Source of the DNA: a virus
Taxonomy: Duplodnaviria; Caudoviricetes
DNA length: 32,683 bases
Strand: one strand, 5' to 3'
IMG/VR virus record: IMGVR_UViG_3300006127_000058
Span: 1 to 32,683 of that record
Below the pieces are notes generated by a model, which saw only the letters and a list, made by a program, of their open reading frames with translations, had not been told where the DNA came from and made no database searches. Below, piece by piece: positions 75 through 32,681 of this stretch (the first letter of the stretch is position 1; each line of letters begins with the position of its first letter). The position numbers and the translations under genes were made by a program.

Positions 75-511
75 AAAACCACCCACCTTTGTCCATTAGA
101 AACTGTAACTGTTGAGCCAGATTGGACTGTAATAGGCCCAACTGATAGCCCATTTTGTCCTGACATGATTGTATAGCTAGATGTAATTGAATTGTTATTT
201 ATTTGTATGGCTCCACTAGCCTGTGCTCCTCCCAAGCCTCCCCAACCACCAGATCCTGTATAGCCCTCATACATTGCTGTTTGGGTATTAAAGCCAATTT
301 GACCCACACTTGGAGAGCTTGGCCTTGTGGAGGTAGTCCAACTCCCTAAAACTGGAGCTGTTAGACCTTTGTTTGTCAGGGTTTGTGTACTTGTTACCCC
401 TACAAATGTGTCAGTAACTGCAGGCAATGTCCAAGTGTAGGTTCCTGTGGTGTTGTTTGCCACCACATTGACTGTTCCCCCACTGGTTTGCTGAAAGACT
501 AAGGTTCCCAT
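71..511 (-). CDS. Small tail-fibre-associated/adaptor protein
   Basis: Start moved to ATG 511 (AAGGA SD plus A-rich spacer). T/G/S-rich, with RPSSPSVGQIGFNT...YEGY motif. The C-terminal SVGPITV...RWVVL module is shared with the 893-aa fibre. Confidence 0.65.
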   Translation of the reverse strand: MGTLVFQQTSGGTVNVVANNTTGTYTWTLPAVTDTFVGVTSTQTLTNKGLTAPVLGSWTTSTRPSSPSVGQIGFNTQTAMYEGYTGSGGWGGLGGAQASGAIQINNNSITSSYTIMSGQNGLSVGPITVQSGSTVTVSNGQRWVVL

Positions 512-521
512 TTTTTTTCCT

Positions 522-3203
522 TTATAGAACAATCCATCTGCTACCAGATGGGACTGTAACTGTTACTCCATTACTTAATGATACTGGCCCAACTGAATGA
601 GCTGAATAACCAGATGGCAATGTGTAACTTGTGCCAATTGTTAAATTGTTGACAAAAAGACCATTTGAGGCAATAACCTCTGCTCCAGTGGAAGTACCAG
701 ATGCACTTACTGTAGTAAATGCTCCAGTTGTAGGAGTTGTTGCCCCAACAGTTCCATTATGAGCACCAGTAAACCCTGTGGCTGACAATATTCCTGTATT
801 AGGAACATAGCTTAATTTAGTGCTACTTGTTGTTTCCCCAGTGATAGTGCCTGTTGTGGCAGTGGTCAAAGTTGGGTAATAAGTAGAACTAGAGCTAGTA
901 TTATCTGTAATGGTTATCCCTGATACTGGAGCTGTTGCCCAAGTGGGAACCCCTCCAGCCAAAGTCAAAATATAGCCATTTGTGCTTGCAGATAAGAATG
1001 TTGTGGTTCCAGATGCTGTTTGATAAGGCAAAGATCCATTAGCTCCACCACCCAAATTTGTGGCAGTTGTAGCACTGGTTGCAGTTGAGGCATTTCCACC
1101 AATAGACAAACTTGAGGCTGTGCCTGTGAGTCCAGTGCCTAAACCAGTAAATGATGTGGATGTCAAAACACCAGTGCTTGGGTTGTACTGAAGTTTTGTG
1201 GAACTTGTGTACTCTGTACTTAAACTTCCAGAGGTCTGGTTAGCAAATAATGGGTATCTGGTTGCATTAGTGGTAGTGTCATCAGTGACTGTGGCATAGC
1301 TTACTGGAGTTGCCCAAGTAGGTGCTCCTGTGCCATTTGACTGTAAAAACTGACCACTTGTGCCAACAGAAGTCAAAGCTATTGCAGAGGCTGTGGAGTA
1401 AGCCACTGATCCTGCAGAGGCTGTCAAATTAGTATTAGTTCCACCATAAGATAGGCCAACTAAATTACCTTGCCAAGAAACTGAGCCAGAAATACTGCTT
1501 GAAGTATTAAAGTTTAGAGTTGCAGTTCCCCAAGAGGCTGTGCTTGGAACATAAGAGTGAACATCCCAAGTGCCATTTGTTGTGCCATTGTTGAGGAGGA
1601 TTAGGTGCGAGGCCCCCCCAGCCTGTAATGCCAAAAGTGATGTAGATCCATCATGTGCATTAATTTGTACAGATGAATAAGTAATATTATTGTTAAAGTA
1701 AAAAGTATCCCCAACCACTAAAGTAGTGGCATCAGGCATATTAAATGTCTGTGATGTCACAGTACCATTAACAATTTGATACTGAGATGATGCAACAGTT
1801 AAATTGATTGGAGTGGATGATGCTGTGGTTGTAGTGGTATTTGGAATAAAGTTATTAGCAAATACATTTTGGTTTGAATCTCTCAAAACCACAGAATTAG
1901 CACCACTAGATGCAGTTACTCCAGTTCCACCACTGCTTACCCCTAAAGTTCCTCCCAGTGTCACAGCTCCAGTTGTTGCAGTGCTTGGAGTCAATCCAGA
2001 CAAAGAAGTCTGAAATGTGGATACAAAATTACCTGAAAGAGCAGATGTGGGAATGGTTGTAGATGCAGTCATTGCACTTGTACCATTGCCATAAACATAG
2101 CCTGTCAGGGTTGTGGCTCCTGTGCCTCCATTTGCCACATTTAAAGTGCCAGAAAGGGTCACAGCTCCTGTTGTGGCAGTATTAGGAGTAAAGCCTGTTG
2201 TGCCTCCAGAAAAGCTCAAAACACCAGTATTTGCTATGGTAATTGCTGTTGAACCATTGTAGCTAGTGCCTGAAAGACCAGTTCCAATGGTCAAAGCATT
2301 TGGATTTACAGCAGTTATAGTGGCTGATCCACCCAAACTAATGCCAGTTCCATTAATAGTGATTGAACTATTAGTCAATCCAGAATTAGGAATAGTTGCA
2401 TTAATTTGACTAGGAGCAATGCTAATAGATGTATTGGTTACAGATGTCACCTGACCAGATGCATTTGTAACAAATACTGGAACAGTTGATGCAGAACCAT
2501 AAGTGCCTGCTGTGCCAACTGGAGTAATGCTGAAAGTGTATGAGGAAAGGGTCAGCCCTGTGCCTGCAAAGTAACTGGCCGCACTTGCCAACTGGCTCCA
2601 AGTCACTGGTGTGGTTCCCAATGTTCCACCACTAGTAATAGTACATACCCAACCAGAATTCTGTTGAGTTGAGCCATTTTGAATAAATGTAAAGGCTGAA
2701 ATCAGTGAATTCCAAGTATTTGCATCACTTGATCTAGACCAAGCTCCTGAAGAGGCCACATAAATGCCATTTTGTGATGATGTGCTTTGATTCTTTACCA
2801 AAACCCTATCATTGGCTAAAGTGGTATAGCCATCTATGGTTTGCAATCCACTTAAAGTAAGGTTCCCAGTTGAGGCAACTTGGCATTCTGCTTTGATGGC
2901 ATAGCCTTGAACAAACATATCCACATAATTCTTGTTAACCAAGTCAGTTGGATTGCTTGGAGTTGTGGAAATAGTGCCTGTAACTGTAGAAATAGAGGTA
3001 AAAGCACCAGAAGATGGAGTTACAAGTCCAATTGTGGTGCTATTTATTGTGCTATTGGTGATGTTTAACCCACTTTGAGATGGATTAAAAGTAGCATAAA
3101 AAGGCTGTCCTTGCCCTATAAAAGTGTTGAAACTACCATCCAAATTGAAATATGCCTGAACAGGCAATAGATTTTGGTCAGATGTTAGGGCAGGAGCAGT
3201 CAT
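522..3203 (-). CDS. Long tail fibre protein (893 aa)
   Basis: T/S/G-rich. Contains the NLTLSGLQTIDG...DRVLVKNQ...QNGIY...WSRSSDA fibre domain and internal duplications (TPxTATTGAVTLxGTLxVxxGGTG x2; TDxT...YP...TSSTKLxYxPxTG x2). Confidence 0.8.
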   Translation of the reverse strand: MTAPALTSDQNLLPVQAYFNLDGSFNTFIGQGQPFYATFNPSQSGLNITNSTINSTTIGLVTPSSGAFTSISTVTGTISTTPSNPTDLVNKNYVDMFVQGYAIKAECQVASTGNLTLSGLQTIDGYTTLANDRVLVKNQSTSSQNGIYVASSGAWSRSSDANTWNSLISAFTFIQNGSTQQNSGWVCTITSGGTLGTTPVTWSQLASAASYFAGTGLTLSSYTFSITPVGTAGTYGSASTVPVFVTNASGQVTSVTNTSISIAPSQINATIPNSGLTNSSITINGTGISLGGSATITAVNPNALTIGTGLSGTSYNGSTAITIANTGVLSFSGGTTGFTPNTATTGAVTLSGTLNVANGGTGATTLTGYVYGNGTSAMTASTTIPTSALSGNFVSTFQTSLSGLTPSTATTGAVTLGGTLGVSSGGTGVTASSGANSVVLRDSNQNVFANNFIPNTTTTTASSTPINLTVASSQYQIVNGTVTSQTFNMPDATTLVVGDTFYFNNNITYSSVQINAHDGSTSLLALQAGGASHLILLNNGTTNGTWDVHSYVPSTASWGTATLNFNTSSSISGSVSWQGNLVGLSYGGTNTNLTASAGSVAYSTASAIALTSVGTSGQFLQSNGTGAPTWATPVSYATVTDDTTTNATRYPLFANQTSGSLSTEYTSSTKLQYNPSTGVLTSTSFTGLGTGLTGTASSLSIGGNASTATSATTATNLGGGANGSLPYQTASGTTTFLSASTNGYILTLAGGVPTWATAPVSGITITDNTSSSSTYYPTLTTATTGTITGETTSSTKLSYVPNTGILSATGFTGAHNGTVGATTPTTGAFTTVSASGTSTGAEVIASNGLFVNNLTIGTSYTLPSGYSAHSVGPVSLSNGVTVTVPSGSRWIVL

Positions 3204-3912: not shown

Positions 3913-3914
3913 AA

Positions 3915-4250: not shown

Positions 4251-4290
4251 GTTTTTTTCCTTTGAAAATTGAAATTGTACTGTTTAAAAC

Positions 4291-4820: not shown

Positions 4821-6074
4821 TTAAGCCGCGATTCTGCAAGCAAGCTCTTGGTACAGCGGTGCCCAACCATACAGAACATCAAGCCTTGTTGGGATTGAAT
4901 CGTTGTTGATGGTGTATTGGCGCACAACACGCATGGACAAACCAACTTCCTTGTCAGAGGCTCTGCCTGCAAAGTGCACACCCTCGGGCAACTCAAGATC
5001 AGCTACCGCTAACGTAAATGCATTGCGATGGAAGAGCATGTTTTGTGGTGACAATGTGCCAGTGTTATTGAATGGTGTAACAACTGCTGTTGAAGATGTT
5101 GTACCAATAATAATAGAGTTCTGGAACTGACCACCAGTGATGACTGCAGGGCTAACTGTAATGTTTGTAGCTGAAGTTCCAACTGTTGTAGTGGACTGAA
5201 TTACAAAATTACGCAATTTGCCAGAGCCATAAGCCTGTCTGTTTTGTGGGTTAGTTGCATACACACCAGCAATCTGGATCACATCACCAGCATTCAATGT
5301 AGATGCTGTAGATGCTTTGATCTGGATTGTTGAATACTGTGACCAACCACTGTTCAAGTAACCAATTTGGCCTGTAGCAGTTGTTGTGTCAGCAGAGAGT
5401 GTGTTTCCACTGTAAGAGCCAAAGGTTTGACTGACCACGTTTTGATCCAATTTCCAATTGGTCCCAGCGCTGTCCCGGCCCATAAGGCCTTTGCGGTATT
5501 GCTCCGCTATCGCCTCTTGTGGCATGAACAAACCTTTTAGTGAATCAACAATAGTTGCTGATGTAAAGGGTTCAACAATACATGCTCTGCGACCATCTCT
5601 TGGTGCACCTTCTGCATCAAGATATGCGCCAGCAGTTAGATAGGTGATGAGGCCTGTGGGGGGTGTCCCGGCCGTCCCGACGATATTTGCTGTTTGCAAA
5701 GCCGCCATCTGTAATCCATCACGGTCTATCTTATTTGCAATAGCAGCTACTGCGGGTTTCAATACGCGGTCACTGAACATATCGAGTGATAGGGCCAGGT
5801 CTTGCGTAGTAAATTGCGTATCCACGTGAAATTGCGTTGATAGAGTGACCGGCACCGAAGTTTCATTGAAGTCCTCTACGTTGAGTGCGGGCCCGGTTGT
5901 ACCAATGAAGCGACCAGGTCTGCGGACATTGACTGTATTGCCGATCTTTCCGCCAACTACGGCAAACTGATCGTCATAGTTGCGATCAACTTCACTTGAA
6001 AATGTGAGTTCGTTTTCTAAGACCATTAATGCTTCATTAGTGATCTTGGATATCGTTAGCAAATTATTTGCCAT
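4821..6074 (-). CDS. Major capsid protein, P22 gp5-like (HK97 fold)
   Basis: MANNLLT...ITNEALMVLENEL, KIGNTVNVRRP and C-terminal RLDVLYGW match the P22 coat family; follows scaffold. Confidence 0.92.
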   Translation of the reverse strand: MANNLLTISKITNEALMVLENELTFSSEVDRNYDDQFAVVGGKIGNTVNVRRPGRFIGTTGPALNVEDFNETSVPVTLSTQFHVDTQFTTQDLALSLDMFSDRVLKPAVAAIANKIDRDGLQMAALQTANIVGTAGTPPTGLITYLTAGAYLDAEGAPRDGRRACIVEPFTSATIVDSLKGLFMPQEAIAEQYRKGLMGRDSAGTNWKLDQNVVSQTFGSYSGNTLSADTTTATGQIGYLNSGWSQYSTIQIKASTASTLNAGDVIQIAGVYATNPQNRQAYGSGKLRNFVIQSTTTVGTSATNITVSPAVITGGQFQNSIIIGTTSSTAVVTPFNNTGTLSPQNMLFHRNAFTLAVADLELPEGVHFAGRASDKEVGLSMRVVRQYTINNDSIPTRLDVLYGWAPLYQELACRIAA

Positions 6075-6103
6075 TTCTGTTCCTTTAAAAAGTTAAAAAT
6101 TGT

Positions 6104-7015
6104 TTACCTTATCTTTCCCGCTTTCCTGAGTTCTTTCCACTGTGATGGAGTGCCATTAAAATTCCCATTTGAATCTATTGGCACTTCAACATTAGAACCC
6201 CCTCTAATAGGATTGATAGGTGCTGGTGCATTGCTCTTTCTAACAGTAGGCTTTTGTGTCTCTGTAGGCTTTTCAAATCTAGCCTCCAATCTGCCAACTT
6301 CTCTCAAAGCACTAATCAATGACATCTTGCCAATTTTTTCTGCTACTTCAGGATTCTCTGCTAAGTGATACAAGATCTTTGGCCCAACATCACTTTCCAA
6401 AATAGCATCCCTAACTTGATCTGAAACAGTCACATCTGATGATGCAATCATTTCCTCATAATCAGGAAGTTCAGCCTTTGCTTGCTCTAACTTAGAACTC
6501 CAAGATGATAAAACCTTGTCTTTCTCTGCCTTTGCTTGCTTTTGCTGTTCAGCAATATCTCTGTCTTTTAGTGCCTTTTCAGTTGAGTATTTTGCTAATG
6601 CCTTTGCATATTCAAATGCATCAGTAAAATCACTAGGCTGTGGTTCTTTATCAAGGTTTTCTGCCACTTGGGGCTTACTAGCTTGTTCAAGTTCTTTAAG
6701 CCTGTTCTCTAAAGCCTCTCTTTGTTCCCTTTCCTTTTGAGCCTCTGCTCTGGCAAGTTCCCTTTCTTTGATGACTTTATCAAACCTCTTTTCAAGTTTT
6801 GGCTTTCTGACACCTTCCTCTACTGGTTTGGTTTCCTCTTGTGCCTCTGGTAAACTCTGATCCTCTTTTGTCTCTGTCAGCTCAGGTTGCTCAACCTCTG
6901 GTGAGGGAGTCTCTGCAGGGTCAGGACTTTGGGTCTCAGCTAAACCAAGTTTGTTAGCATAAAAATCACCTGAATTTTCTGAAGTAATTACATTACTTGC
7001 TTGTCTATCACTCAT
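6104..7015 (-). CDS. Scaffolding protein
   Basis: Acidic coiled coil between portal and coat, with ESDVGPKILYHLAENPE and a basic C-terminus. Start moved to ATG 7015 (GAGGAA SD). Confidence 0.8.
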   Translation of the reverse strand: MSDRQASNVITSENSGDFYANKLGLAETQSPDPAETPSPEVEQPELTETKEDQSLPEAQEETKPVEEGVRKPKLEKRFDKVIKERELARAEAQKEREQREALENRLKELEQASKPQVAENLDKEPQPSDFTDAFEYAKALAKYSTEKALKDRDIAEQQKQAKAEKDKVLSSWSSKLEQAKAELPDYEEMIASSDVTVSDQVRDAILESDVGPKILYHLAENPEVAEKIGKMSLISALREVGRLEARFEKPTETQKPTVRKSNAPAPINPIRGGSNVEVPIDSNGNFNGTPSQWKELRKAGKIR

Positions 7016-7067
7016 GAGTTTCCTCAAGTATTTTGCCTAGTCTGCCTGACTAGTAAGGTTTGTGGGC

Positions 7068-7096: not shown

Positions 7097-9205
7097 TTAT
7101 TGTTGCTGATTAGGCATAATGGATTGGTCAGCCTGCATTATTGCTTGGTACTGCTCCTGATTTCTCATTGCTATTTCCCTTTCTAGCCTTGCAGTGTCCA
7201 TGTTGTGCAAAAGTAAGTCTGTGATGGCCTCAATTTCAGACCTGTTTTGACTTGTGATGGCCTTGGTGTTCACATCATGAACCCTAGCCTCCAAAGTAGA
7301 CTCAGTGTTATGAGCCTTGGCAGTCTGCCTCATCAACTCCCTCTGTGTCTCAGCCTGTTGCTTGACTTGCTCAATATCTTGTCTTTGTTTCATAGCCAAC
7401 TGCATAGCCTGTAACTGCTGTGTGAGCTGTTGGACTTGAGCTTGGGCTTGCTTAATTGCCATCTGAGCCTGTGGAGGAATCTCAGAATGTTCATCAATCT
7501 GGGCTAATGGGTTCAGAGTTGCAAGTCTGTCTGCAATCACCTCAGCACCTGGGAAGTCCATGTTCCTGAACACCAAGTCTGCAGCGGCATTGAACAATTG
7601 CTCATTTCCAGACAGCAATGGCATCATTGCCTCAACTGCCTCTTGACGCTTGGAGTTATACCCTGGGCCTGTCTCCATCACCACATCATATTGGCCTACA
7701 GTCACATCATTCATGACTCTTCCAACTGCATCCCTTTGATTAATGGTCAAAAGGTCTGGCTTTCCATCATCACCAATAATCCTCATTACCCTTTCAGTGT
7801 CATAAATATGAGGAATTAGATCCAAAATGATCTTACCAATATGGGCTATGGACTTGGTTAAATTGTCATAAAGGTCAAAATTGGTCAGATCAATCTGCAT
7901 TTGTTGACCATTTAGAGCCTTTCCAGACATATTGCCTGGGAGCTGTTGGCTTGGGTCATAAATGCCAATAATAGTAGCCATGTCATCATTGATCTGACTA
8001 GCGGCAGTCATAATCCCTGCTGGAGGAGGCTCTGGCTGAAGTCTTGTTGGAGGAGGAGCTGGGTTTCCATCAATATCAGTCTGCTTATATCTCAAAGTAG
8101 CCATTGACTTGATGTTGGCACTTGCCCAATCATTCTCATGACCCTCATCTTGACCCTCTGCCATGATCCATTTAGCCTTTGGAGCCAAGGCCACAGATTC
8201 AGTCATGGATGTGACCCAGAAGTTGTACATGCGCTGGCTGTCCTTCGCATGTCTCACCATTCCAAACTTTTTCCTCTTGTCACCAATGACCACATGCCTT
8301 CCATAAACTGGAACAATTGGGATGTAGTAGCCAGGCCAATCTCTCTCCTCCAAGACCTCAATTGCTGTCAGTTTTTTCCATTTAATGGTCTTTTTGACAC
8401 TTGGCCTTTCATCCACTATTTCTAGCCCAGATCTCTTAATCTTTTCAAAAAAGTCCTTGGAATCTGCAAATCTAGCAGAGCCATCACTCAATAAATAGAG
8501 TTTGGCTTTTTCTCTGACTGTGTAAAAGTATTCTGCAACCCTAATATCTTCCCTAGTAATCCATTCAGACTGAGTGTCTCCAGTTCCTCTAGAGGTAAAG
8601 GAAGTGTCTTGGGCATCTGGATACATCTGCTTAAACACAGATTTAGGCATCATGGATGTAATCAGACACTTTTCTTGGTCTGAGCCATCAACTGCTATAG
8701 AGTTGGGATCCATATAAACAGTAAAGGGATTGTCAATAGGATCTATGTAGATTTCTTGGTCAAAAGAATCTTCCCTTACATATCTATGGTCAACTCTGAT
8801 ATATCCCCAACCCATGCGTACAGCATAGTTATAAGCATTGTCATAAGCATTATCTGCACTGGAATTTACCTCTATGTGCCTGACCATTCCTTGGACTACT
8901 TTTGCATCTGCCGCGTCCTCCACAGTATTTGTGGCATGAACCTTAATCCTTGGCCTTTGTTGTCTCTGTTGGTTAGTTACTTGTCTGCAATAGCCATCCA
9001 GTTTATTAATAGTCAAAACTGGTCTGGACTCTAAGTTTCTTGAGTTTTGTAGGTCAACAGGCCATTGATCCCCCCCAGATGCAAACTTGAGATCTTCCAA
9101 AGCCTCTTGTCTGTTCATGGTGTCTGCATCATTTGCAAACTTTAGAAATTGTTTGGCCTCATCAATGATGGGGTCATAGTCTGTTTCTTGAGGATCTAGT
9201 GCCAT
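7097..9205 (-). CDS. Portal protein, P22 gp1-like
   Basis: 702 aa with GDQW, RPVLTINKL, YIPIVPVYG, GMVRHAKDSQRMYN, SGKAL and YDVVMETGPGY, plus a Q-rich C-terminal barrel. Confidence 0.92.
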   Translation of the reverse strand: MALDPQETDYDPIIDEAKQFLKFANDADTMNRQEALEDLKFASGGDQWPVDLQNSRNLESRPVLTINKLDGYCRQVTNQQRQQRPRIKVHATNTVEDAADAKVVQGMVRHIEVNSSADNAYDNAYNYAVRMGWGYIRVDHRYVREDSFDQEIYIDPIDNPFTVYMDPNSIAVDGSDQEKCLITSMMPKSVFKQMYPDAQDTSFTSRGTGDTQSEWITREDIRVAEYFYTVREKAKLYLLSDGSARFADSKDFFEKIKRSGLEIVDERPSVKKTIKWKKLTAIEVLEERDWPGYYIPIVPVYGRHVVIGDKRKKFGMVRHAKDSQRMYNFWVTSMTESVALAPKAKWIMAEGQDEGHENDWASANIKSMATLRYKQTDIDGNPAPPPTRLQPEPPPAGIMTAASQINDDMATIIGIYDPSQQLPGNMSGKALNGQQMQIDLTNFDLYDNLTKSIAHIGKIILDLIPHIYDTERVMRIIGDDGKPDLLTINQRDAVGRVMNDVTVGQYDVVMETGPGYNSKRQEAVEAMMPLLSGNEQLFNAAADLVFRNMDFPGAEVIADRLATLNPLAQIDEHSEIPPQAQMAIKQAQAQVQQLTQQLQAMQLAMKQRQDIEQVKQQAETQRELMRQTAKAHNTESTLEARVHDVNTKAITSQNRSEIEAITDLLLHNMDTARLEREIAMRNQEQYQAIMQADQSIMPNQQQ

Positions 9206-10492
9206 TTATAGTGCCATCCATGATTGTGGTGGTGCATAGTTTACTTGTTTTGGTCTTTTTGGTCTAGTCTCTTGGACTCCCAAGGCAACCATTCTGAAAG
9301 CATCAGCTCCATGTGAATATTGGTCATGAAGTGGGTTTTTACTAAATGCTTTTGTCTCTGGGTCAACTTCATACCTATAGTGTCTCAGACATTGCAACCC
9401 ATCATAGCAATTATCTCTGTCAAAGAAACAGTTTCTGAACATGGTTCTGGAGGCATTTATTGAGTCTGCAATACTGGTTCTTGGAATGATTTTGGTCTTG
9501 AACCCTGAATTTCTGACAATTTCCTCTATGGTTCTACCCTGAGCCGCCAAGGTCTTATTCTGAGCATCATGAGGCAACCACAAAGTGTCATAGACATATC
9601 CAAAGGTTTGCATCAAAGCCAAATAATGGCTCACAGTCTGCTGATTGTCCTCAATATATCTAATAAACCTGATTTCTTGGGCTATGAACTGCACAAACCA
9701 AATGGCTGTGGAGTCTGCCCATCCAAGATCAAACACAGCATGAACTGGCTTGGTAGGGTCATATCTGACTTTGGTAATTCTTTCCTCCAACTCAGCACTT
9801 TGCATTTCCCTTGCAAACACAGCTCCATCCACAGTCTGCCTACACAATCCTTCCCAGACAGTGTTATAGGCCTCTGGATCTCTGGCCTGAAGAGTTCTCC
9901 TCTCATGATCTAAGACTTCTGGAAACCAAGGATTATCAGACCAGTTGACTTTGGTTGTGATGCAATTATCAGGCTTGTGGAGGATAAATCTTTGGTATGT
10001 GGCATCTGACTCCAGTTCTGGGTTCATGGTTATCCAAATCTCTGAGTCTTTTGCCCTTATAGTTGGGATCAAAATATCCCATGACCTAGCTGACACTGCT
10101 TGCGCCTCCTCAACCCAAACAATGGTACACCCTTCGTATGACTTTATATTGTGTGGATTGTTCTTTAGGCCAACAAAGGAAAACTCAGTTCCATTTGCTC
10201 CTTTGATTGAGGACTGGGTTATCTCATAAAACCCAATTAGGCCAAGCTCTACTATCTGGTCACTTAATAGCTTATGAACTGATTGAGATATGGAGTTCTG
10301 GAATTCCCTTGCACACAAAATCCTATGGACTTGCTTTGCACCCAAGATGAGCAATGCTCTCGCAACAGACCAAGACTTTGCTGACCCTCTTCCTCCAAAG
10401 ATGCATTTATATCTAGAGGGTTCAAACAGGCACTGGAGCTTGACTGGAAACTCAGCCTTTTTAATAGCTTGATTAAGTTCACTCTGCTCCAT
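9206..10492 (-). CDS. terL: Terminase large subunit (PBSX/XtmB-like)
   Basis: Walker A GGRGSAKS, Walker B VWVEEA, nuclease FDLGWAD and HGADAFR. Confidence 0.95.
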   Translation of the reverse strand: MEQSELNQAIKKAEFPVKLQCLFEPSRYKCIFGGRGSAKSWSVARALLILGAKQVHRILCAREFQNSISQSVHKLLSDQIVELGLIGFYEITQSSIKGANGTEFSFVGLKNNPHNIKSYEGCTIVWVEEAQAVSARSWDILIPTIRAKDSEIWITMNPELESDATYQRFILHKPDNCITTKVNWSDNPWFPEVLDHERRTLQARDPEAYNTVWEGLCRQTVDGAVFAREMQSAELEERITKVRYDPTKPVHAVFDLGWADSTAIWFVQFIAQEIRFIRYIEDNQQTVSHYLALMQTFGYVYDTLWLPHDAQNKTLAAQGRTIEEIVRNSGFKTKIIPRTSIADSINASRTMFRNCFFDRDNCYDGLQCLRHYRYEVDPETKAFSKNPLHDQYSHGADAFRMVALGVQETRPKRPKQVNYAPPQSWMAL

Positions 10493-10970: not shown

Positions 10971-10981
10971 TTGTGTTTCCT

Positions 10982-11125: not shown

Positions 11126-11126
11126 G

Positions 11127-13764: not shown

Positions 13765-13783
13765 CTTACTAAAATAGTTTTAA

Positions 13784-23030: not shown

Positions 23031-23245
23031 TATTTATTCTGAAAAAAATGTACTACATAACCAGAAATGCTAGACAGAGCAGAGACTATTGCCATCCCTG
23101 CCCAAAACCCACCCCTACCTTGGTTAGCAAGTTTGAGCAACTCTTCCATGCCTGTTTCTAGCTTGTCAATCTTTTGTTCCATGTTCTCTACTTTTTGCCA
23201 AAGAACACCATACTTAACAAGATCTATGGGTGATTCTGTACTCAT
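23030..23245 (-). CDS. Small coiled-coil protein with C-terminal TM (holin/antiholin-like)
   Basis: ANQGRGGFWAGMAIVSALSSISGYVVHFF hydrophobic tail; at the head of the lysis cluster. Confidence 0.6.
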   Translation of the reverse strand: MSTESPIDLVKYGVLWQKVENMEQKIDKLETGMEELLKLANQGRGGFWAGMAIVSALSSISGYVVHFFQNK

Positions 23246-24009
23246 GATTTGAATATGTAAGCTAAAGCATAGTAAGGAGGTAGGTTAGCATTTGTGCCAC
23301 TTACACCAGTGCTTTGATTTGTAGTTGTTGTGGATGTTGCTACAGATATTCCAGTTGTTGCTGAATCTGTATTAGCAGATGAATTTGCTGTAAATACTGC
23401 AGTTGAACTACCAGACTGAGGAGCTGTTACTGTAGCCTTTTGGTAAGCATGGAAGTGGCCTGGGTCAGTCACCGTAGAGGTAGAGCTAGATGTAGCTGTG
23501 TGAGTATGTGACACCACAATAGCATCTGTAGAGCCTCCAGTAGCACCTGGTGAGTAAGTGGAGCCTGCACCCACTATAAAAGATGATCTTAGATCTGGTG
23601 TTCCATTAGTACCATCACAAAGCAACCATCCACTAGGAATAGCTCCAATAGCTCCAGACCACATTGCAATCAAGCCTGATGGAACATAAGCTCCACCACC
23701 ACCACTTGTAGATTGAACTCCAATAATTCCATACAAATTATCATAAGTCTGAATAGTCACATTATTGCTATCAGTCAATACAAACTTGTAGTTATAGCCA
23801 TAAGTCAACCAAATCTCATTTTGTGGCCTACCATCTGTTCCCAAAACAATAGGATTGGTATTAGGAAAAACTGCACCATTGTCTGAGTAAGTGGTCAGAG
23901 GAGTTGTGGAGCCTGCCTGATAGGTGTAGATAAATCCACCATTTAATGGCAATCCAGTGGTAGTAAAGAATTGAAATCCATTACCTATGGGTGAAAGATT
24001 GACACTCAT
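23242..24009 (-). CDS. Short tail fibre with virion-binding N-terminus and collar domain
   Basis: GLPLNGGFIYTYQAGSTTP...NPIVL..GR; collar IPSGWLLCDGTNGTPDLR; SHTH...HFH; NLPPYYALAYI. Confidence 0.8.
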   Translation of the reverse strand: MSVNLSPIGNGFQFFTTTGLPLNGGFIYTYQAGSTTPLTTYSDNGAVFPNTNPIVLGTDGRPQNEIWLTYGYNYKFVLTDSNNVTIQTYDNLYGIIGVQSTSGGGGAYVPSGLIAMWSGAIGAIPSGWLLCDGTNGTPDLRSSFIVGAGSTYSPGATGGSTDAIVVSHTHTATSSSTSTVTDPGHFHAYQKATVTAPQSGSSTAVFTANSSANTDSATTGISVATSTTTTNQSTGVSGTNANLPPYYALAYIFKS

Positions 24010-26252
24010 TTATTGTCCTTATTTAATAAATCTTTGATTGGAATAAATCTACTTTGAGCATTTTCAAAGGATTGTTTTTCTGTTGTTGCTTGAGCCTCTG
24101 CATTCTTTTTAATGGCTCTTTTTTCTAAATAATGACTTGTAACAAGTGCAGGAACTCCCATTCCATGACCACCAGTTACAAATTCAGCTCCTAATGGAAG
24201 TCCTTTGTTAATTGCCATTTCACCTATTTTTTGACCAAGTTTCTTTTCTATGTTTATGGTCTGAGCGGCAGAGCCTGGATAACCAGTGTCAGTTTTAAAT
24301 ATATGCTTTGCATTATGAAAGTCTCTTATATTCTCCATCTCTTCTGGAGAAAATAATCTAGTCATGACTTCTTTATTGCTATTTAAAAATTTGGTTAATT
24401 GTGCAGGATTTTTATCTGCCATTTGGTTTACAAAATGTGCTTTAATTTCACCTACTGCTTTTTGAGCTTGTGGTTGCAACTCATTAGGCATACTTTTTAA
24501 AGTATCAATTACATGGGTAAATTGATCCACAGGCATATTAGTAATGTTTTGAGGAATTTTCTCAACATCAACTTTTCTATTAATATCTTTTGGCCCATTA
24601 GCCTCAAGAATATTAGATATTCCTTTTGGATTATCCAAAGTATTTTTTCTAAGTTCTACCAATTGCCTAGCATCTTTGTAAAGTGGTGAGTTAGTATCCA
24701 TATTAGATAATACATCATCATCCACTGCACCTTTTAATGCCTTGTGTAATTGATTAGCTTTTGGATCATAATTTTGATTTAACCATTTTCTAAACAATTC
24801 TGAATGATAGGCATCAGTAGGCAATAAATTACCTTTTTCATCCATCATGCCTAATTGCTGAAGTTTAATTTTAGATGTCTTTGCTAATCTTTCAGCGGGA
24901 TCAGAAATTTCACTTAAAGTTCTGTCATTAAGTGTTTCATTTATTTTGTTTGCTATAACAGGAATTGATTTGCCTTGTTCATCCCTAGCTTTATAAATTT
25001 CTTCTGTTTTCTTGTCAAAATAATCTTCAAGACCTTTAAGAGGCTCTAAAATAGTATTTCCTCTTTTGTAAACAGCAGACTCATCAAGTCCTTCTGTTCC
25101 ACCAGTATCTTTAACTAATTTTGATTGATAAGCATTAATTCTATTTTGCTCATCAGCAAATCTTTCAGCCAAGTAATTGCCTAGAGCTGTATCAGTTTTT
25201 GATGTCTGGTAATTTGTGGCTCTTTCTTTTCCTTTACCTTCAATAGCAGATAAATCAGCCTGATGATCTTCACCCAATACTTTTTGAGCTGTCTTAGCTC
25301 TAGCATATTGCTCATCCAATGGCAAGCCAGATTCTCCATAATGAACTTCTTTAAACTCTGCCTCTGGAGTTGTAGGTTTGGCAGTTCCCAAATCTTGTAC
25401 AACTGGAGGAGCATTATCCTCTTGTACCACTTGCTGATTTGGTTCTGTCCCTGTAGGATTAGCTTTTTTCTGTTGAAAGTCTTGTTCTAATTTTTCAAGA
25501 TTTTGAGTAATTTCAGGAACTTTCTTTTGTTCTAATTGTTTTTGAAGTTCTATTTTTACTTTAGGAATTTTTTGACCTAAAGCACCAGATATTAATTTAG
25601 CTTCTTCTACAATAGGTTTTGTTATTGCTTTAGCAACAGGCTTTAATTCTGATCCAATTTCTGGAATAGCAAAACTTGCTATATTAAGCATGTTTCTTAC
25701 ATGCTCAACAGGAATTCCAGTTTTCTTTGATATAAAATCTGCACCTTTATTTCCATATTCACCAATAACTTGGCTGATTTGATTACTTAATTCTTGTTTA
25801 TAAGCAGGATCTTCTGTAACACCAAAAAACTTACCAACAGGTTTTTCTAAAAATCCACTTACAGCACCACCTATTTTTTCTGCTCTTTGTGGATTTGTTA
25901 AAGGGTTTACATAAGCCTGTGTTACTGCTCCTAAAGCAGTTGGAACTGGAGACCAAGCAACATCAGCAAGTGATGCAAAACCTTTTCCTAAATCACCTAA
26001 AAATCCTGTAACTCTGCCTTTTGGCTCTGGAGATGGAGGTTCAGAATAAACATCTAAAACAGCCTTATGTAAATCAAGTGGATGATAAATATCTGGGTTA
26101 TTAGTTGATTGAGTTACAACATCAGCCATTGGTTGACTAGGATTAAAACTAGACATACTGCTTTTCTTTGGAGCAATAATATCTGTTGGCTTTTTCTTGC
26201 CATAAACATCATCAACTGCACTATTTAATTCATCTAAACTTAAAATAGTCAT
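24006..26252 (-). CDS. Internal virion/DNA ejection protein (P22 gp16 position)
   Basis: Large helical protein, third of three ORFs after the tail hub. Assignment is by synteny only. Confidence 0.6.
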   Translation of the reverse strand: MTILSLDELNSAVDDVYGKKKPTDIIAPKKSSMSSFNPSQPMADVVTQSTNNPDIYHPLDLHKAVLDVYSEPPSPEPKGRVTGFLGDLGKGFASLADVAWSPVPTALGAVTQAYVNPLTNPQRAEKIGGAVSGFLEKPVGKFFGVTEDPAYKQELSNQISQVIGEYGNKGADFISKKTGIPVEHVRNMLNIASFAIPEIGSELKPVAKAITKPIVEEAKLISGALGQKIPKVKIELQKQLEQKKVPEITQNLEKLEQDFQQKKANPTGTEPNQQVVQEDNAPPVVQDLGTAKPTTPEAEFKEVHYGESGLPLDEQYARAKTAQKVLGEDHQADLSAIEGKGKERATNYQTSKTDTALGNYLAERFADEQNRINAYQSKLVKDTGGTEGLDESAVYKRGNTILEPLKGLEDYFDKKTEEIYKARDEQGKSIPVIANKINETLNDRTLSEISDPAERLAKTSKIKLQQLGMMDEKGNLLPTDAYHSELFRKWLNQNYDPKANQLHKALKGAVDDDVLSNMDTNSPLYKDARQLVELRKNTLDNPKGISNILEANGPKDINRKVDVEKIPQNITNMPVDQFTHVIDTLKSMPNELQPQAQKAVGEIKAHFVNQMADKNPAQLTKFLNSNKEVMTRLFSPEEMENIRDFHNAKHIFKTDTGYPGSAAQTINIEKKLGQKIGEMAINKGLPLGAEFVTGGHGMGVPALVTSHYLEKRAIKKNAEAQATTEKQSFENAQSRFIPIKDLLNKDNK

Positions 26253-27754
26253 TATTGATTACCAGTTACAAGTGAATAAATTTTGTTATATTTTTTGATT
26301 AAATCTGCATAGCCTTCAGAATTTGGCCCACCAACTTTATCTATAATTTTTCTTATTTCTACTTTGTCTTTGTTTTTTATAGCATCATAATATTTCAATG
26401 CATCAATTTCAGCAACTGATGCCCATTTTTCCATGTAATCTCTGCCTGCTAATGGATTGTTGCCTGCTTTTTTAATTGCATTACTCATTCCTAATCCATA
26501 CAAATCAGATGCAGTAACCAATGCTCTATTTGTTCTAGCTGTGGACTTAATTGCATCATTTGTCCAATTAGTAGTTCCAATTTGTTCTTGGGCAATTGAT
26601 CTTCCTTGGTCAGTGCCTAAACCAGCTTGTTGTGCAAGATTTCCAGTTTGTAAAGCCATGTAATGACCAAGTTGTTGAAGATTACTTGTTTCATCAGATG
26701 TCCAAGGAATTGCAGAATAACCACCACCCAATTTTGCAATTGTTTGTGCACCAACTCCAGTAATGGATTTATTAGCCAAATCAATAATTTGATTGTAGTT
26801 GTATGTACTTTGAGGAACTGTTAGTCTTTGTTCAATAGCTTTTTGTTGAATTGCTTTAGCAGTTTTTACTGTTTCCTCATTTTCAAAAGGAACTCTTGTA
26901 ACTGGCAAAGTTGGTTCTGCTGTTTGACCTGTTTTGGCTCCAGGCATAGCATTTGGAGGAACAGATGCAGGAACAGTAGTCTGTCCAATTACTCTGCCTT
27001 TGTCATCCATAACATTAAATATTGGATTACCTGAAATATCTTTAGTATTTGTATCAACCATCCTTTGTGAATAAGGCAATGGTGATGGTGTAGCAACAAG
27101 TGGCTTACCTCTTAAAGTTCCTGGAGCAACTCCAGTAATATCAGGATTACCTCCAGCAATTGGATTAAATTCACCACCAGTTCCAAGAAATTGAGTTGCA
27201 GGAAATTTGGCCGCATATTGCTCAGATGTTGTTCCAGAACTTTTAGCCGCTATGCTTCTTAGCTTTTCATAAGCATCATAATCTTTGTTAGCAATAGCCT
27301 CTTCTAATTGACCTAAAAGATTAGATGGATGTTTGGGCAATCCTACAGCCTCAGTTCCTTTTCTAATAATTTCTAAAGATTTTGTTAATGCTCTTTGATT
27401 TACTTCACCAGACTTTTCATCTGTAAATTCATCTATTTTTGGCAAAGAATTAATCATTTGTCTTGAATAATTTTCACCAGAAACTAAAAAATCTTGTTTA
27501 GCTTTTTGTGCTCCAGTAACAGCAGATTCTGCCCTAGCTTGAGCCTCTTTTAAAGCTATTGGATTCATCATCCTAGCTTGCTCAATATCCATTTGCTGTT
27601 TTTGCAAAGCCTTTTGAGCTTGCTCAATTTGCAAAGGATTTAATTGTTGAGCCTGTTGATAAGCCTGTGCTCCTTTAGCAATATTAAGCATATCCCCCAG
27701 AGATGTCTGAGGCTGTGGTTGAATTGCAATAGGTGAAAAATTAAAGCCTGCCAT
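26252..27754 (-). CDS. Internal virion/DNA ejection protein (P22 gp20 position)
   Basis: Q/A-rich N-terminus; synteny. Confidence 0.6.
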   Translation of the reverse strand: MAGFNFSPIAIQPQPQTSLGDMLNIAKGAQAYQQAQQLNPLQIEQAQKALQKQQMDIEQARMMNPIALKEAQARAESAVTGAQKAKQDFLVSGENYSRQMINSLPKIDEFTDEKSGEVNQRALTKSLEIIRKGTEAVGLPKHPSNLLGQLEEAIANKDYDAYEKLRSIAAKSSGTTSEQYAAKFPATQFLGTGGEFNPIAGGNPDITGVAPGTLRGKPLVATPSPLPYSQRMVDTNTKDISGNPIFNVMDDKGRVIGQTTVPASVPPNAMPGAKTGQTAEPTLPVTRVPFENEETVKTAKAIQQKAIEQRLTVPQSTYNYNQIIDLANKSITGVGAQTIAKLGGGYSAIPWTSDETSNLQQLGHYMALQTGNLAQQAGLGTDQGRSIAQEQIGTTNWTNDAIKSTARTNRALVTASDLYGLGMSNAIKKAGNNPLAGRDYMEKWASVAEIDALKYYDAIKNKDKVEIRKIIDKVGGPNSEGYADLIKKYNKIYSLVTGNQ

Positions 27755-27762
27755 GTTAGTCC

Positions 27763-28575
27763 TTATGCTTGTGCACCTGGCACACCACCAGATTGAGTAT
27801 TAGGGCCAATTGTTGCATTTGGATCATAGCCTTGTGGAGCTTGTACATTAGGCTTTTGATTTAGCAATGCCCATAAAGTAGCACCACTTCCCAAAGTATT
27901 TGTAAGTCCACCATAAGCATTGGCAGATGCAATTTGGCCTTGACCCAAAGCACTAGCTCCACCAACTCCAAGACTGCTAATGTTGTTTGTGGCATTTTGG
28001 CCCGCAGTGTTCACAGCACTTTGGGCTGTTTGACCAATGCCTGCCTGTCCAGCCAATATCCCATAAATATTATTTCTTTGATTCTGGTAATTAGTAAAAG
28101 CATTTTGGTATTGAGTCCCAGCCAACCCTTGTGTGTAATTTTGTAACCCAGTAAGTGCATTTCCACCTATCAAACCTCCACCCACATTATTGGCATTTTG
28201 TGTAGCCCTTTGGCCTTGGTCAAGCACAAAACCATAGTTAGGAGCCATTTGAGCATTTAAATCACCAGATCCAAATTGATGAGTTAAATAACCAGACCCT
28301 GTGGAGGTTCCTGTTGGGTTTCCATTAGCATCATAAGTCTGATAAGCACCAGATCCAAGTGAACCAAGTTGATTAATAGAGTTATAACCAAGTTGTCTTT
28401 GAGGAGCTTGTTGTTGTTGAATGGTGTTGAATTCAGCCTTTTGCTCTGCAATGGCTTGCAGTGCGGCTTGGTATTGCAACTGCGCGGCTTGTTGTGCGGC
28501 ATTAGCCTGTTTGTTAGCACCCCATACACTTAAACCACCAGATGCAAGTAATGCGGTTCCTACTCCAATTGGCAT
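27763..28575 (-). CDS. DNA ejection/pilot protein (P22 gp7-like)
   Basis: Hydrophobic G/A N-terminus; PNYGF...QG...GGLIGGNAL..L..Y.QGLA...YQNAF motif. Confidence 0.75.
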   Translation of the reverse strand: MPIGVGTALLASGGLSVWGANKQANAAQQAAQLQYQAALQAIAEQKAEFNTIQQQQAPQRQLGYNSINQLGSLGSGAYQTYDANGNPTGTSTGSGYLTHQFGSGDLNAQMAPNYGFVLDQGQRATQNANNVGGGLIGGNALTGLQNYTQGLAGTQYQNAFTNYQNQRNNIYGILAGQAGIGQTAQSAVNTAGQNATNNISSLGVGGASALGQGQIASANAYGGLTNTLGSGATLWALLNQKPNVQAPQGYDPNATIGPNTQSGGVPGAQA

Positions 28576-28577
28576 AA

Positions 28578-28928
28578 TTAACCCCTTTTAATCAAAACTT
28601 CATCCACCTTAGACTCATCTTTTTCATCAGTGGCATGAATACAAAACCAAACAGAATCCTCCAATGCTTGGATTGAATGGTGTATACCAGATTTTATTTC
28701 AATACAGCTAGGAGCACTATAAGTATTTTCAGAATTATCAGTTCTCACAATAACCTTGCCTTTAGCCAAAATACTCAAGTGACTAAAGCTATGGATGTGC
28801 TGAACCACAAAGAAATCCTTTGGGATGGTCATTTCTTTGGCATACAAACCATCAGAAAAGTTATGGACTGTTTTAGGATCAAAGTCCATCCTACCCTCTA
28901 AGGTCTTAAAAATATCTGAATGATTCAT
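28578..28928 (-). CDS. Cupin-fold protein
   Basis: HNFSDGLYAKE, HIHSFSH and GIHH...ALED metal-binding cupin pattern. Confidence 0.75.
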   Translation of the reverse strand: MNHSDIFKTLEGRMDFDPKTVHNFSDGLYAKEMTIPKDFFVVQHIHSFSHLSILAKGKVIVRTDNSENTYSAPSCIEIKSGIHHSIQALEDSVWFCIHATDEKDESKVDEVLIKRG

Positions 28929-29143
28929 TGGTTATAGTAAGGAACTTTGAAGTTTTGCCCATTTACTGTTACATTCATAAACCCTACTGGAGCACTAGGC
29001 AAAATAGCTCCTCCCTTTGTGGCTGTAGGTGATGATGTGAAATTCAACAAATTCTGAAAATACTGTAGCCAAGCTCTACTTGGCCTTTGAGTTGATTGAT
29101 CCAATAACTCTGTCTGTGGATAAGCCTTGATTTGTGTGGTCAT
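28925..29143 (-). CDS. Small tail-associated protein
   Basis: 72 aa coupled to the gp10-like gene; PSRAWLQYF...KVPYY. Confidence 0.6.
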
Positions 29144-31374
29144 GATTCTCCCTGACTTGCTTTCAGATTAGAGGAAACAATTACAGCAAATACAGGGTCA
29201 GTCATGGAAACCTCAAAAACTCTATCCCTAGCAGTTCCAAGCCTTCTCCAAATAGCCCTGTTTCTATATCTTCCCTCTTGACCAATAGTTACCCAATATT
29301 CTCTAGACCATGTAGATCCACCATCACTAGACCATCTGAGCATAGCTTGTGGATAACTTTGGACTTGGCTAGACAATAATTGATTTGGAACACCAATGAT
29401 GATAATGTCATTTACACCAATAGTAAAGGTCTGAGTTGGAGCAATTATTAGGTTTTGACCCACTACATTGCCTGTGACCACAGTTGGCCCTACAGTCCCC
29501 ACACCAGGCTGAAACTGGATCTGCAACTCATCAAAAAATTGCCTTTGCAAGTCACTGACCAAATGAGGTGCTCTTCTGACCCTCCTAATAAATTGACCAG
29601 AATCTGTGTAATTGGATGGGTCAAGCATGTAAATCTGACCATTTTGCCAATCCCCAACCAAAACCATATTCTGAAACACAGCAGAGCAATTAGCCCTATG
29701 TCTGTGGAATTTATTATTGTTATCACACCAAAGCCATTTATGCCACATTCCTGTGGTTATATCAAATGCCCAAGTTAAATCCAAAGTTGGGAAAGAAATG
29801 ACATAAACTTCATGTCCCTCTAACTGATAAGTAAAGGCAATTGCATCCTCAACATACTCATTGACTAGGGTATTTTCAACAGCATGAGTGGATATTCTTT
29901 GTGGAATATAACCATTCATCTGAACAATTTGAGATTGGCCTCTGATATTTCTGCTTAAATAAGCAAAAGAATTGCCTAATCTAGCCACAGAAAATGGAGC
30001 CACAATGCCATGCTGAGTGCTTGTGCCAGGGATTCTCTGAAATGGAAATGGATAAGTTCCAGTATCTACCCAAACCTCAGAAGATACTTCCCCTAATAAA
30101 TAAACTTCCCTATGGTCAACAATTAAAGACACTAAATTATCAGGAGAGCCATCTTTTGAGGCAAAACTCAGTGAATAAGAAATAGGTGAAAGTGGATTAC
30201 TTGCACCCCATTGTTGGGTATTTGGCCTGTTATAGACAAAATAATTGTCCACAGTATCCACCACATCTGCACTACTAAATGCACCATCACTAGAGGGCAA
30301 AATAGTAAAGTTCAGAGCATAAAGGGTTTCTGAGCTAACAGTTTGAGAGCCTGAAACTATATAAGATCCAGTTCCACCAGAGCCTGTGCCAAAGGTTAAG
30401 TTTAAGGTCAACCCAGTACCAGCACCTGAATCCGTCACAGAAACAGGGTTTGTAGGTGTGGCTGTGTAGGCTCCAGGGCTAGTCAGTGAAAGTCCTGTAA
30501 CCACTCCTCCAGTGCTGATTGAGGTCACTGTGAATGTGGCTGGGCTTTGCCCATAAACACCACCCACAATAGTCACAATATCATTGACAGCATAGCCAGT
30601 GCCTGCAGTCACTATAGAGCCACTCAATACAGTCTGTGAGCCTAGAGCTGTGATTACAGTCTTGGTTGCTACACTGGTTCCTTGGATGGTCTGGCCTGGG
30701 TACAGTGTCCCTGTAATGGCTGTCACAGTCAGAGTTGTGCCTGAAATGGATCCTGTCAGTGTTGCCGCTACATTGGCAGAGTTCATCCTCTCTGCTGTTG
30801 ATACAGTCTGAGACAAATTAATTGTGTATGTCCCAATGCCTCCAGATCCAGATCCAAGGGCTGTAATCACTGTTTCATTAGCTACACCAATGCCAAATAA
30901 TGCTTGTCCAACAGCTATGGTTCCATTGGTCACAGCAGTCACATTTAATGTGGTTCCTGAAATTGTGGCAGTAAAAACAGCAGATGAGGGACTAGAAATC
31001 CTCCATGTATATCTATTTTGACCATCCACAATATAGACATTGGTTCCATTATCAGTAATTCCTACCTGACCACTTGAGGTAGTTAATTGACCAATAATTG
31101 TAGGAACTAAGCTAGATGTCAGTGAATAAACATATTGACCACAGACAGCTACTAATTGATTGGATCCTGAGACAGCTCTTAATCCCCTAACTGGAGCCTG
31201 ATTCTGAAATGAAACCACAGTGGTGAGGCCAGGAGTTGGGTACAGAGCAACCACACCCCTAGTGCCAGGCTGTTTAAGTGGGTCAATCTCAGGCCTCCAG
31301 TTAATGCACTCTTGGTCATCTTGGTAGATAGAGGGAGCACCATAACTAGGGCCAACAAAGCCAAATTCAGGCAT
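29140..31374 (-). CDS. Tail hub / DNA stabilisation protein, P22 gp10-like, with inserted beta domains
   Basis: [36 protein letters not shown] and [11 protein letters not shown]...[13 protein letters not shown]. Confidence 0.88.
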
Positions 31375-31383
31375 TTATGCTCC

Positions 31384-32361: not shown

Positions 32362-32363
32362 AT

Positions 32364-32681
32364 TTATCCTAAATTAGGTGTGAAAACTTGTGGTTTCCAA
32401 GGAGGAACAACTACTTTTGATTTTTCAAGCAAGGCAATCTGTTCCTCTAATCTTGATTTTATGAGGTTTTTTCCATCCCTCATAGATTCATTTTCTATCC
32501 ATTCTGAGACTAATTCTTCTGTAACTTGACTAAAAGGAATGTTAGCAACAGGATTGGCAAAATACCAGTTGCCCTCAGTATCAACCGTGTTTGTACCGTC
32601 AGTCAGGCTTAAATGGTACTTTGCATGGGTGATTAATTCACCCTCTGCGCTTAGTTCCAGTATTTGCCATTTGTAATTCAT
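32364..32681 (-). CDS. Tail-associated hypothetical protein
   Basis: Y.W.I...FSQVTEELV..WI...PPW pattern seen next to fibre genes; start lies at the window edge. Confidence 0.55.
   Translation of the reverse strand: MNYKWQILELSAEGELITHAKYHLSLTDGTNTVDTEGNWYFANPVANIPFSQVTEELVSEWIENESMRDGKNLIKSRLEEQIALLEKSKVVVPPWKPQVFTPNLG

Follow-up and report, generated by a model that had tools for sequence, protein, structure and literature searches.

Clade-wide loss of CG dinucleotides by selection on silent sites in freshwater P22-like podophages

The viral sequence IMGVR_UViG_3300006127_000058 (Duplodnaviria; Caudoviricetes), analyzed here over its entire length of 32,683 nucleotides and referred to as the window, is a P22-like podophage genome that has lost nearly all of its CG dinucleotides (CpG). 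This loss results from selection on silent sites; it concerns the dinucleotide itself, arose once, depends on no identifiable phage gene, and is continually offset by imported CG-rich DNA that is then eroded. We propose, with about an even chance of being right, that the cause is a weak selection, dependent on the number of sites, in which a host activity present in part of the host range recognizes CG in the DNA of the phage.

Extent of the CG depletion

The window contains 135 CG, whereas its base composition predicts 1,257 (observed/expected ratio [O/E, or rho], 0.11), and 200 base shuffles gave a mean of 1,253 and a minimum of 1,187. A first-pass annotation, made from the sequence alone, had described a near-total CpG depletion, with about 50 CG in some 29 kb outside a few islands, where on the order of a thousand would be expected. 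The counts bear this out, with 41 CG in 29,863 bases outside eight marked islands versus 1,128 expected, and 0 CG in each of the three stretches it had described as CG free (75-1600, 16830-18430, and 24900-27200). It was equally right that GC dinucleotides are common (ratio, 1.20) and that the loss spans CGN and NCG codons, codon junctions, and intergenic DNA, as every codon position and the DNA outside open reading frames (ORFs) are depleted. Outside the coat protein gene, there are 34 junction CG versus 400 after within-gene synonymous codon shuffling, the control that the annotation had called for, and codon-internal CG are reduced to 20 in CGN and 30 in NCG codons. All genes of the window together use 339 AGA/AGG arginine codons versus 32 CGN. 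Non-ORF DNA holds 35 CG versus 233 expected in five depleted genomes (0.15) and 195 versus 238 in four normal genomes (0.82). C and G separated by one to six bases (C-N-G and longer gaps) occur at normal frequency. The purged regions of the window include the following:

6104..7027, minus strand: scaffolding protein gene (phrog_8865), a purged core gene with 1 CG versus ~40 expected.
7097..9205, minus strand: portal gene, a purged core gene with 8 CG (83 to 124 in the portals of sisters) and 3 CGN versus 38 AGA/AGG arginine codons; used for the arginine codon and tree tests.
9206..10492, minus strand: terminase large subunit (terL) gene, a purged core gene with 4 CG and no CGN among its 28 arginine codons.
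22400..31380, minus strand: lysis-to-tail block, with per-gene O/E of 0.00 to 0.16, containing the CG-free stretch 24900-27200.

One depleted clade among CG-normal relatives

The CG loss is the trait of one clade, from which about 95% of CG have disappeared, with a single recent origin on a short branch and no intermediates. Among 157 related loci, which are the best 80 of 302 plus the best 80 of at least 598 fetched with portal and coat queries, 14 have a CG O/E of 0.12 to 0.24 and 143 of 0.62 to 1.21, with none in between; some of these loci are one contig fetched twice, so that locus counts exceed the number of independent genomes. In nucleotide trees, the depleted sequences are monophyletic for the portal (10 of 10; support, 1.0), terL (8 of 8; 0.994), and coat (14 of 14; 1.0) genes, on a stem of ~0.15 changes per site. 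These trees comprise the closest sequences and four outgroups (27, 23, and 37 rows, respectively), the distant rows being left out. The four other complete depleted genomes have CG ratios of 0.10 to 0.19, and four normal genomes have ratios of 0.75 to 0.84. CG-normal sisters include phages with portals 85 to 91% identical to depleted ones; they serve as natural controls, which, together with the recent single origin, is the new aspect of this case. The annotation had considered that relatives or the host might be equally CpG poor; neither the close relatives nor the sampled candidate host genomes are.

The avoided unit and its cost per site

The avoided unit is the dinucleotide CG in all flanking contexts. 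Outside GCSGC, all ten NCGN classes are retained at 1 to 9% of a codon-matched null (131 of 3,006), and a dereplicated set of 92 ORFs retains 182 of 3,519 NCGN. By context, retention is 0.031 for ACGA, 0.010 for CCGA, 0.020 for ACGT, 0.061 for TCGA, and 0.065 for GCGC.

GCWGC is avoided too (0.18 in the clade against 0.91), and because several CG-normal relatives lack GCWGC entirely, we consider this an ordinary site avoidance, distinct from the CG loss. Classic sites are likewise avoided by the clade and its relatives, with AAGCTT, ACATGT, GGTACC, GCTAGC, and CCATGG at or near zero, and CG-normal relatives can avoid a single CG-containing site, CCGG standing at 0.15 while their overall CG is 0.81. 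In the window itself, GCWGC occurs only five times (31, 55, 5743, 7581, and 18613), GGWCC twice, and AAGCTT, GAGCTC, and TGGCCA not at all. When the features of Type II site avoidance were examined, silent-site selection was present, and a word of 4 to 8 bases was found only for GCWGC and the 6-base sites.

The Ala-Ala codon pair imposes a choice between GCWGC and GCSGC. In this frame, depleted core genes have 58 GCSGC and 19 GCWGC, compared with 114 and 242 in normal genomes (odds shift, 6.5; P = 3.5e-12). In avoidable frames of the same genes, both words are missing (0 GCSGC versus ~29 expected and 0 GCWGC versus ~32 expected). GCSGC as a protected motif was rejected, as it is present only in the forced Ala-Ala frame. 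Since CG is preferred over GCWGC at Ala-Ala, each CG probably costs little. Under mutation-selection balance, with equilibrium assumed, the scaled selection cost would be ~3 per CG and ~5 per GCWGC, both values being lower bounds because imports add CG. Ala-Ala pairs are scarce in depleted genomes (0.34 to 0.59), yet they are also scarce in the GCWGC-free, CG-normal genome G008 (0.60).

Tests of methylcytosine deamination

The first-pass annotation had offered deamination of 5-methylcytosine (m5C) under CpG methylases as a possible cause, with a TpG/CpA excess as its signature. Three tests contradict it, namely, the four-fold sites, the arginine codon switch, and the share of C>T changes at lost CG. 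At four-fold sites of core genes, decay would shift the G share to A after C and the C share to T before G. Against close sisters, NCA enrichment is 0.89-fold (0.76 to 1.01), where decay predicts 1.49, and T before G is 0.98-fold (0.78 to 1.17), where decay predicts 1.32, so that both tests exclude the predicted excess. Against distant relatives, NCA (0.76 [0.63 to 0.90]; predicted, 1.34) excludes it again, and T before G (1.12 [0.90 to 1.38]; predicted, 1.39) does so only just. These values come from 81, 85, and 68 gene copies, with a bootstrap over genes, which are not independent. Hence, there is no CA/TG compensation at four-fold sites, and NCG was replaced by NCT/NCC more often than by NCA (53 versus 13).

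At the 12 portal columns with CGN in all seven sisters, 70 of the 72 codons of six depleted portals are AGA/AGG, and CGN accounts for 35 of 886 arginine codons in depleted core genes versus 718 of 1,291 in sisters. In partly purged imports (six pairs; shared tracts of at least 84% identity), C changed at 106 of 292 CG sites versus 214 of 1,938 sites elsewhere, and C>T made up 59 of 106 changes at CG (0.56) versus 129 of 214 elsewhere (0.60; P = 0.47). A version of deamination based on mutation load is also ruled out because the same C>T excess would be needed.

What speaks for deamination is a TG/CA ratio of 1.35 in the window versus 1.25 in normal relatives and the change of junction CG to TG in 73 of 96 cases; however, TG is also the usual silent route, and AG/CT rose more (1.10 versus 0.93). 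C5 methylases (PF00145) are found in one of five depleted records and two of five normal records. In the window, neither C5 nor N4/N6 methylase families were found, in agreement with the annotation, which had seen no methylase gene there. We therefore consider that the mechanism known from Mycoplasma penetrans, in which a CpG methylase promotes deamination of m5C, is almost certainly not the cause, with or without selection on mutation load. A type of methylation with no effect on the mutation spectrum, such as N4-methylcytosine (m4C), may be compatible with these tests.

CG islands and recombination

Through recombination, the clade acquires CG-rich DNA from CG-normal phages, and this DNA loses its CG as its sequence diverges. 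Imports keep 43 of 44 CG at 99.9% identity (a 1,570-base tract shared by depleted L177 and normal L101), 17 of 21 at 92%, and 17 of 92 at 85%; the 16 shared tracts listed retain 93 of 212 CG altogether. Accessory genes retain CG in proportion to the recency of their arrival. Islands such as the coat gene are largely explained by such recombination. The islands and clusters of CG are as follows:

4821..6074, minus strand: coat protein gene, the main island (47 CG; O/E, 0.70) and a recombination hot spot.
13237..14024, minus strand: early-ORF island with 13 CG, within three small variable ORFs (13049-14050; O/E, 0.35 to 0.50) that are patchy or absent in other complete genomes; likely recent imports.
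19822..20067, plus strand: small ORF with normal CG (7 CG; O/E, 0.92), for which comparison with eight other genome records revealed no homologue; likely a recent import.
28464..28554, minus strand: cluster of 5 CG in a DNA-ejection gene, at its Ala-rich start, 3 of the 5 being forced Ala-Ala choices.

The coat gene is an island in 14 of 14 depleted loci (O/E, 0.35 to 0.72). In the window, 36 of its CG lie at 5438-6054 and 10 at 4827-5026, with 1 between. In the depleted locus L102, a coat tract of ~640 bases, including a 245-base insertion, is 91 to 100% identical to CG-normal phages while its flanks match depleted ones, in a single assembly that may be a chimera. The window shares 98.5% overall identity with L001 but differs from it at ~80 silent codons within coat codons 7 to 218. 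Over 11 segments of the gene, CG retention correlates with the amino acid identity shared with normal phages (Spearman, 0.72; P = 0.013), whereas its relation to C-ending codon bias is negative (-0.57). Seven CGN arginine sites are kept in at least 9 of 12 depleted coat genes, and a few NNC-G sites likewise; as such sites are kept by nearly all members, translational selection may add to the retention.

Sliding windows revealed no close CG-normal donor of the window's own coat tract, and a search with 17-base exact matches returned 10 stretches, of which 2 belong to this clade, 1 to a distant coat gene, and 7 to unrelated sequences. The donors are not the CCGG-avoiding sisters, because four of the six CCGG sites of the window sit in the coat gene (5475, 5668, 5849, and 5893); this site is lacking from 61 of 106 coat genes of CG-normal phages. 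At the contig start, window positions 1-112 include exact 53- and 58-base matches to the CG-normal locus L153, with 3 CG nearby, pointing to a recent import.

In 21 loci (17 distinct contigs), the coat gene contains ORF-less insertions of 226 to 281 bases, which occupy at least six conserved sites and have a structured core in common (L102:4952-5198, L030:4880-5589, L090:1411-1638, L100:5142-5390, L130:4300-4589, L055:6364-6636, and others); three further insertion rows are short offsets in distant prophages. From its motifs, we take this core to resemble group I introns, with no match in Rfam. The 189 portal and 161 terL locus hits contained no such insertions, and neither does the window. 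Intron homing could be a driver of coat exchange, and homing nucleases have been described at the borders of exchange (PMC10448857).

Phage genes and the modification slot

No phage gene tracks the CG depletion. The annotation had suggested a by-product of the phage's own modification system, embodied in the following module:

17893..19514, plus strand: ABC-ATPase-GNAT gene and second GNAT gene (phrog_11143, phrog_1249, PF00583) in a variable DNA modification slot, with a 9-CG island at 18442-18612.

This suggestion did not hold. The ABC-GNAT gene is missing from the complete depleted genomes G001, G002, and G003 and present in the window and G017, i.e., in two of five complete depleted genomes, and 55 of the 80 loci whose CG ratio is at least 0.6 contain homologues of it; the module was rejected as the cause. 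ABC-GNAT pairs form a predicted, uncharacterized DNA acylation system (PMC7824862). The slot, located after the replication genes, rotates modules consisting of ABC-GNAT plus GNAT, ABC-GNAT alone, a TAGT glycosyltransferase, or a C5 methylase (window 17893-19514; L160:5711-6800; L158:1363-2283). In the five complete depleted genomes, it holds ABC-GNAT in two, a TAGT-type gene in two (G001 and a homologue in G002), and a C5 methylase in one (G003). The G003 methylase gene is itself CG rich (38 versus 51 expected) and common to the normal genomes G007 and G011, and no N4/N6 methylase was found in any of the five depleted genomes. A second ORF of 301 amino acids overlaps this methylase (L158:1363-2283) in another frame (1374-2279), and the HhaI motifs matched correspond to the first half only, an arrangement reminiscent of two-subunit methylases with a frame-shifted subunit.

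Three ORFs are common to the five depleted genomes and absent from the four normal ones, namely, terS, a 63-amino-acid ORF, and a 56-amino-acid membrane ORF. A wider check found terS in 9 normal loci and the 63-amino-acid ORF in 13. The 56-amino-acid ORF (window 12495-12665), whose first half is hydrophobic, occurs in 40 depleted loci; on the normal side, a single genome gave a weak match. Atlas matches for the small clade ORFs remained below 0.9 (2 proteins for the 56-amino-acid ORF), and PADLOC returned only weak P-loop matches. Conversely, no gene is found in all four normal genomes and in no depleted one, beyond differing terS types.

A phage-encoded product that targets CG (modification enzyme, host-degrading nuclease, or DNA-binding protein), such that the genome avoids its own weapon, would be consistent with the distribution of the 56-amino-acid ORF among depleted loci and with the DNA modification genes that all five complete depleted genomes carry in the slot. 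However, the content of the slot differs among them, ABC-GNAT and C5 methylases are shared with CG-normal phages, and so are terS, the 63-amino-acid ORF, and, through its weak match, the 56-amino-acid ORF. The enzyme version is largely refuted, and we regard a phage product of any kind as highly improbable.

Candidate hosts

Related phage contigs are binned in freshwater metagenome-assembled genomes (MAGs), mostly of Betaproteobacteria, which is weak evidence on the host. A portal search of genome contigs gave 17 matches, all in MAG contigs or distant prophages and none CG poor (0.75 to 1.33). When 401 genomes from the family of G013 were searched for Erf, 8 matches were obtained, of which one was close (70%; locus CG, 1.02), and DNA searches of 241 plus 251 genomes found phage contigs in MAGs and no demonstrable integrated prophage. 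A four-CG pattern was too sparse over the 241 genomes for ranking, 9 having no match and 5 one match. In sampled pieces, 16 genomes of the candidate genus (the 9 without a match, the 5 with one match, and 2 others) showed CG ratios of 0.65 to 0.95, and five MAGs showed ratios of 0.66 to 1.08. With the O/E measure of PMC11282364, 11 Polynucleobacter rows of ~27 are given as 1.35 to 1.42, one Methylopumilus row as 1.41, and one Limnohabitans row as 1.24.

C5 methylases occur in 55 of 241 genomes of the candidate genus, some of them adjoining Type II nucleases. Thirty C5 methylase loci of this genus were checked for CG-free islands and discarded, with no link to the phage. The lowest value, 0.47, belongs to an ordinary Type II pair (L443:414-2523) of one candidate host genome, in which the nuclease gene beside the methylase gene has 3 CG (0.14; 29% G+C).

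Discussion

Altogether, these results place the selecting agent, as we infer, on the host side and at the DNA level, with a small cost per site. A host defense would read CG in incoming phage DNA and destroy or block this DNA with a small chance per site. Candidate agents are a host-side nuclease, a glycosylase, or a methylation-dependent restriction step, which would be present in part of the host population, thus sparing sisters specialized on other strains. A small cost per CG would also explain why CG persists at forced Ala-Ala sites, in fresh imports, and in the coat gene with its frequent exchange. A host nuclease or defense sensor had been among the options of the first-pass annotation; it is compatible with all tests, although no such protein or host was found.

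Several observations weigh against a host activity reading CG. Neither the host nor a CG-reading protein came to light among the genomes and MAGs searched. To recombine with the clade, CG-normal sisters have to be present in the same cells, yet they are not depleted. An efficient cutter is excluded because 135 sites remain, 47 of them in one gene. Retention is heterogeneous among contexts (0.01 to 0.094; chi-square P = 7e-6), as pooled enzymes would give. Strand symmetry of contexts, the mark of a double-strand DNA reader, was good in four genomes and failed in the larger set (Spearman, 0.03). Finally, the selection values assume equilibrium.

The heterogeneity of contexts leads to the alternative of pooled ordinary Type II restriction, in which many enzymes of the host population with CG-containing sites of 4 to 6 bases would together purge the dinucleotide. 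The avoidance of classic sites and of GCWGC in the clade and its relatives and the C5 methylases of the candidate genus, some beside Type II nucleases, agree with it. However, non-palindromic contexts such as ACGA and CCGA are as purged as the palindromes ACGT, TCGA, and GCGC, single-site avoidance in CG-normal relatives looks different, with CCGG lost and overall CG kept, and the trait arose once on a short branch with no intermediates; pooled restriction is thus, in our view, unlikely. A reader acting on RNA or translation (a CG-cutting RNase, a sensor, or tRNA supply) could be invoked insofar as transcription may extend over all of the sequence tested, strand symmetry was unconfirmed in the larger set, and certain CGN arginine sites of the coat gene are widely kept. 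Yet tRNA supply cannot account for the loss of junction CG or of CG in non-ORF DNA, the coat gene, likely the most expressed, keeps its CG, and its retention tracks protein conservation rather than codon bias, which makes this explanation improbable. The same grade applies to a physical or chemical cause, either easier bending for packaging or escape from a CG-selective intercalator or cross-linker of the host or its neighbors, mitomycin C and echinomycin being examples of CG-selective drugs. A weak per-site cost in all contexts fits such a cause, and CpG loss has been linked to DNA bendability in bacteria (PMC11282364), but the sisters with closely similar portals, the same gene order, and the same size (33 to 35 kb) keep their CG.

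The case is one of motif avoidance by selection. It resembles the restriction site avoidance of non-temperate double-stranded DNA phages (Rusinov et al. 2018, PMC6286503) in that a short word is lost by silent change, and GCWGC and several 6-base palindromes behave here in just that way. It differs in that the word has two bases and is avoided in all contexts, whereas the known sites are Type II sites of 4 to 8 bases, and in that no cognate enzyme has been assigned here; the terms "CpG" and "dinucleotide" are absent from the main text of that paper. In Mycoplasma penetrans, CpG under-representation accompanies the methylase M.MpeI (Wojciechowski et al. 2013, as cited in PMC11282364), a case similar to ours in its strong genome-wide CG loss in a prokaryotic setting and dissimilar in that our phages show no deamination signature and have no methylase in common, and in that none of the candidate hosts found is CG poor. 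In the Bacteroides phage crAss001 (MH675552.1), the first 30 kb contain 39 CG (rho, 0.05; TG, 1.08; AG, 1.29), a purge of the same kind in an unrelated phage of another host phylum. The crAss001 capsid gene has 0 CG, whereas the coat gene is an island in our clade, for which CG-normal, DNA-exchanging sisters also exist.

Modification-dependent restriction at methylated CG is known for Escherichia coli Mrr and McrA, the MspJI family, and PsuGI (PMC12707154), and a penalty at the level of CG is therefore biochemically possible. Unlike the present case, these enzymes need prior methylation, and no methylase is shared by the clade or tied to a host. In vertebrate viruses, CpG is suppressed via ZAP and TLR9, sensors encoded only by vertebrates according to PMC11282364; the likeness lies in silent-site selection against a CG-sensing host factor, with no bacterial counterpart identified here. 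PMC6329791, PMC7522526, PMC13326640, and bioRxiv 10.1101/2025.05.15.652987 had no bearing on the cause of CG loss. Our search, which largely covered literature outside subscription, found no description of phages purged of CG at the dinucleotide level.

If selection removes a word of only two bases, a pressure must be at work that described bacterial defenses, with their avoided sites of 4 to 8 bases, do not explain. It is possible, though we hold it tentatively, that freshwater Betaproteobacteria carry an undescribed anti-phage system that treats CG as foreign and from which phage lineages escape by recoding. If true, such a system would be the bacterial counterpart of ZAP and TLR9. The lineage amounts to a natural experiment, with its recent single origin, CG-normal sisters, dated imports, and a scale of CG versus GCWGC at Ala-Ala pairs. 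The search for the agent thereby becomes testable, and it bears on k-mer-based host prediction and on the recoding of phages or plasmids for such hosts.

Genome content and source setting

The window has 39.3% G+C and an estimated completeness of 95. Its P22-type block comprises the coat (PF11651), portal (PF16510), and terminase (PF04466) genes and head-closure and ejection genes (phrog_578 and phrog_598), and a lambdoid early region encodes YqaJ, Erf, Cro, and NinB; lysis genes are also encoded. A Cro-like gene is thus present, and no integrase was found among the 56 ORFs of this ~95% complete record. No tRNA or Rfam family matched within the window. The nearest named records are uncultured spring phages (portals, 66% and 61%), of which MW202674.1 has a CG ratio of 0.92.

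The 12 sequencing runs with at least a fifth of the sampled window words are all freshwater metagenomes, and no RNA data set is among the listed runs holding window words. In the four runs examined, pieces of 350 to 730 bases match the window, many with no or few differences. A contig of run X2 equals window 5553-6182 with zero differences and spans the junction between the CG-rich coat gene and the CG-free scaffold region; X2 may be the source sample.

A GroES-like co-chaperonin gene lies at window 11560-11820, within a podophage of 33 kb. The unannotated stretch between ORFs at 10981-11128 is similar, at 74%, to part of a chromosomal contig of G521 that lies among host genes.

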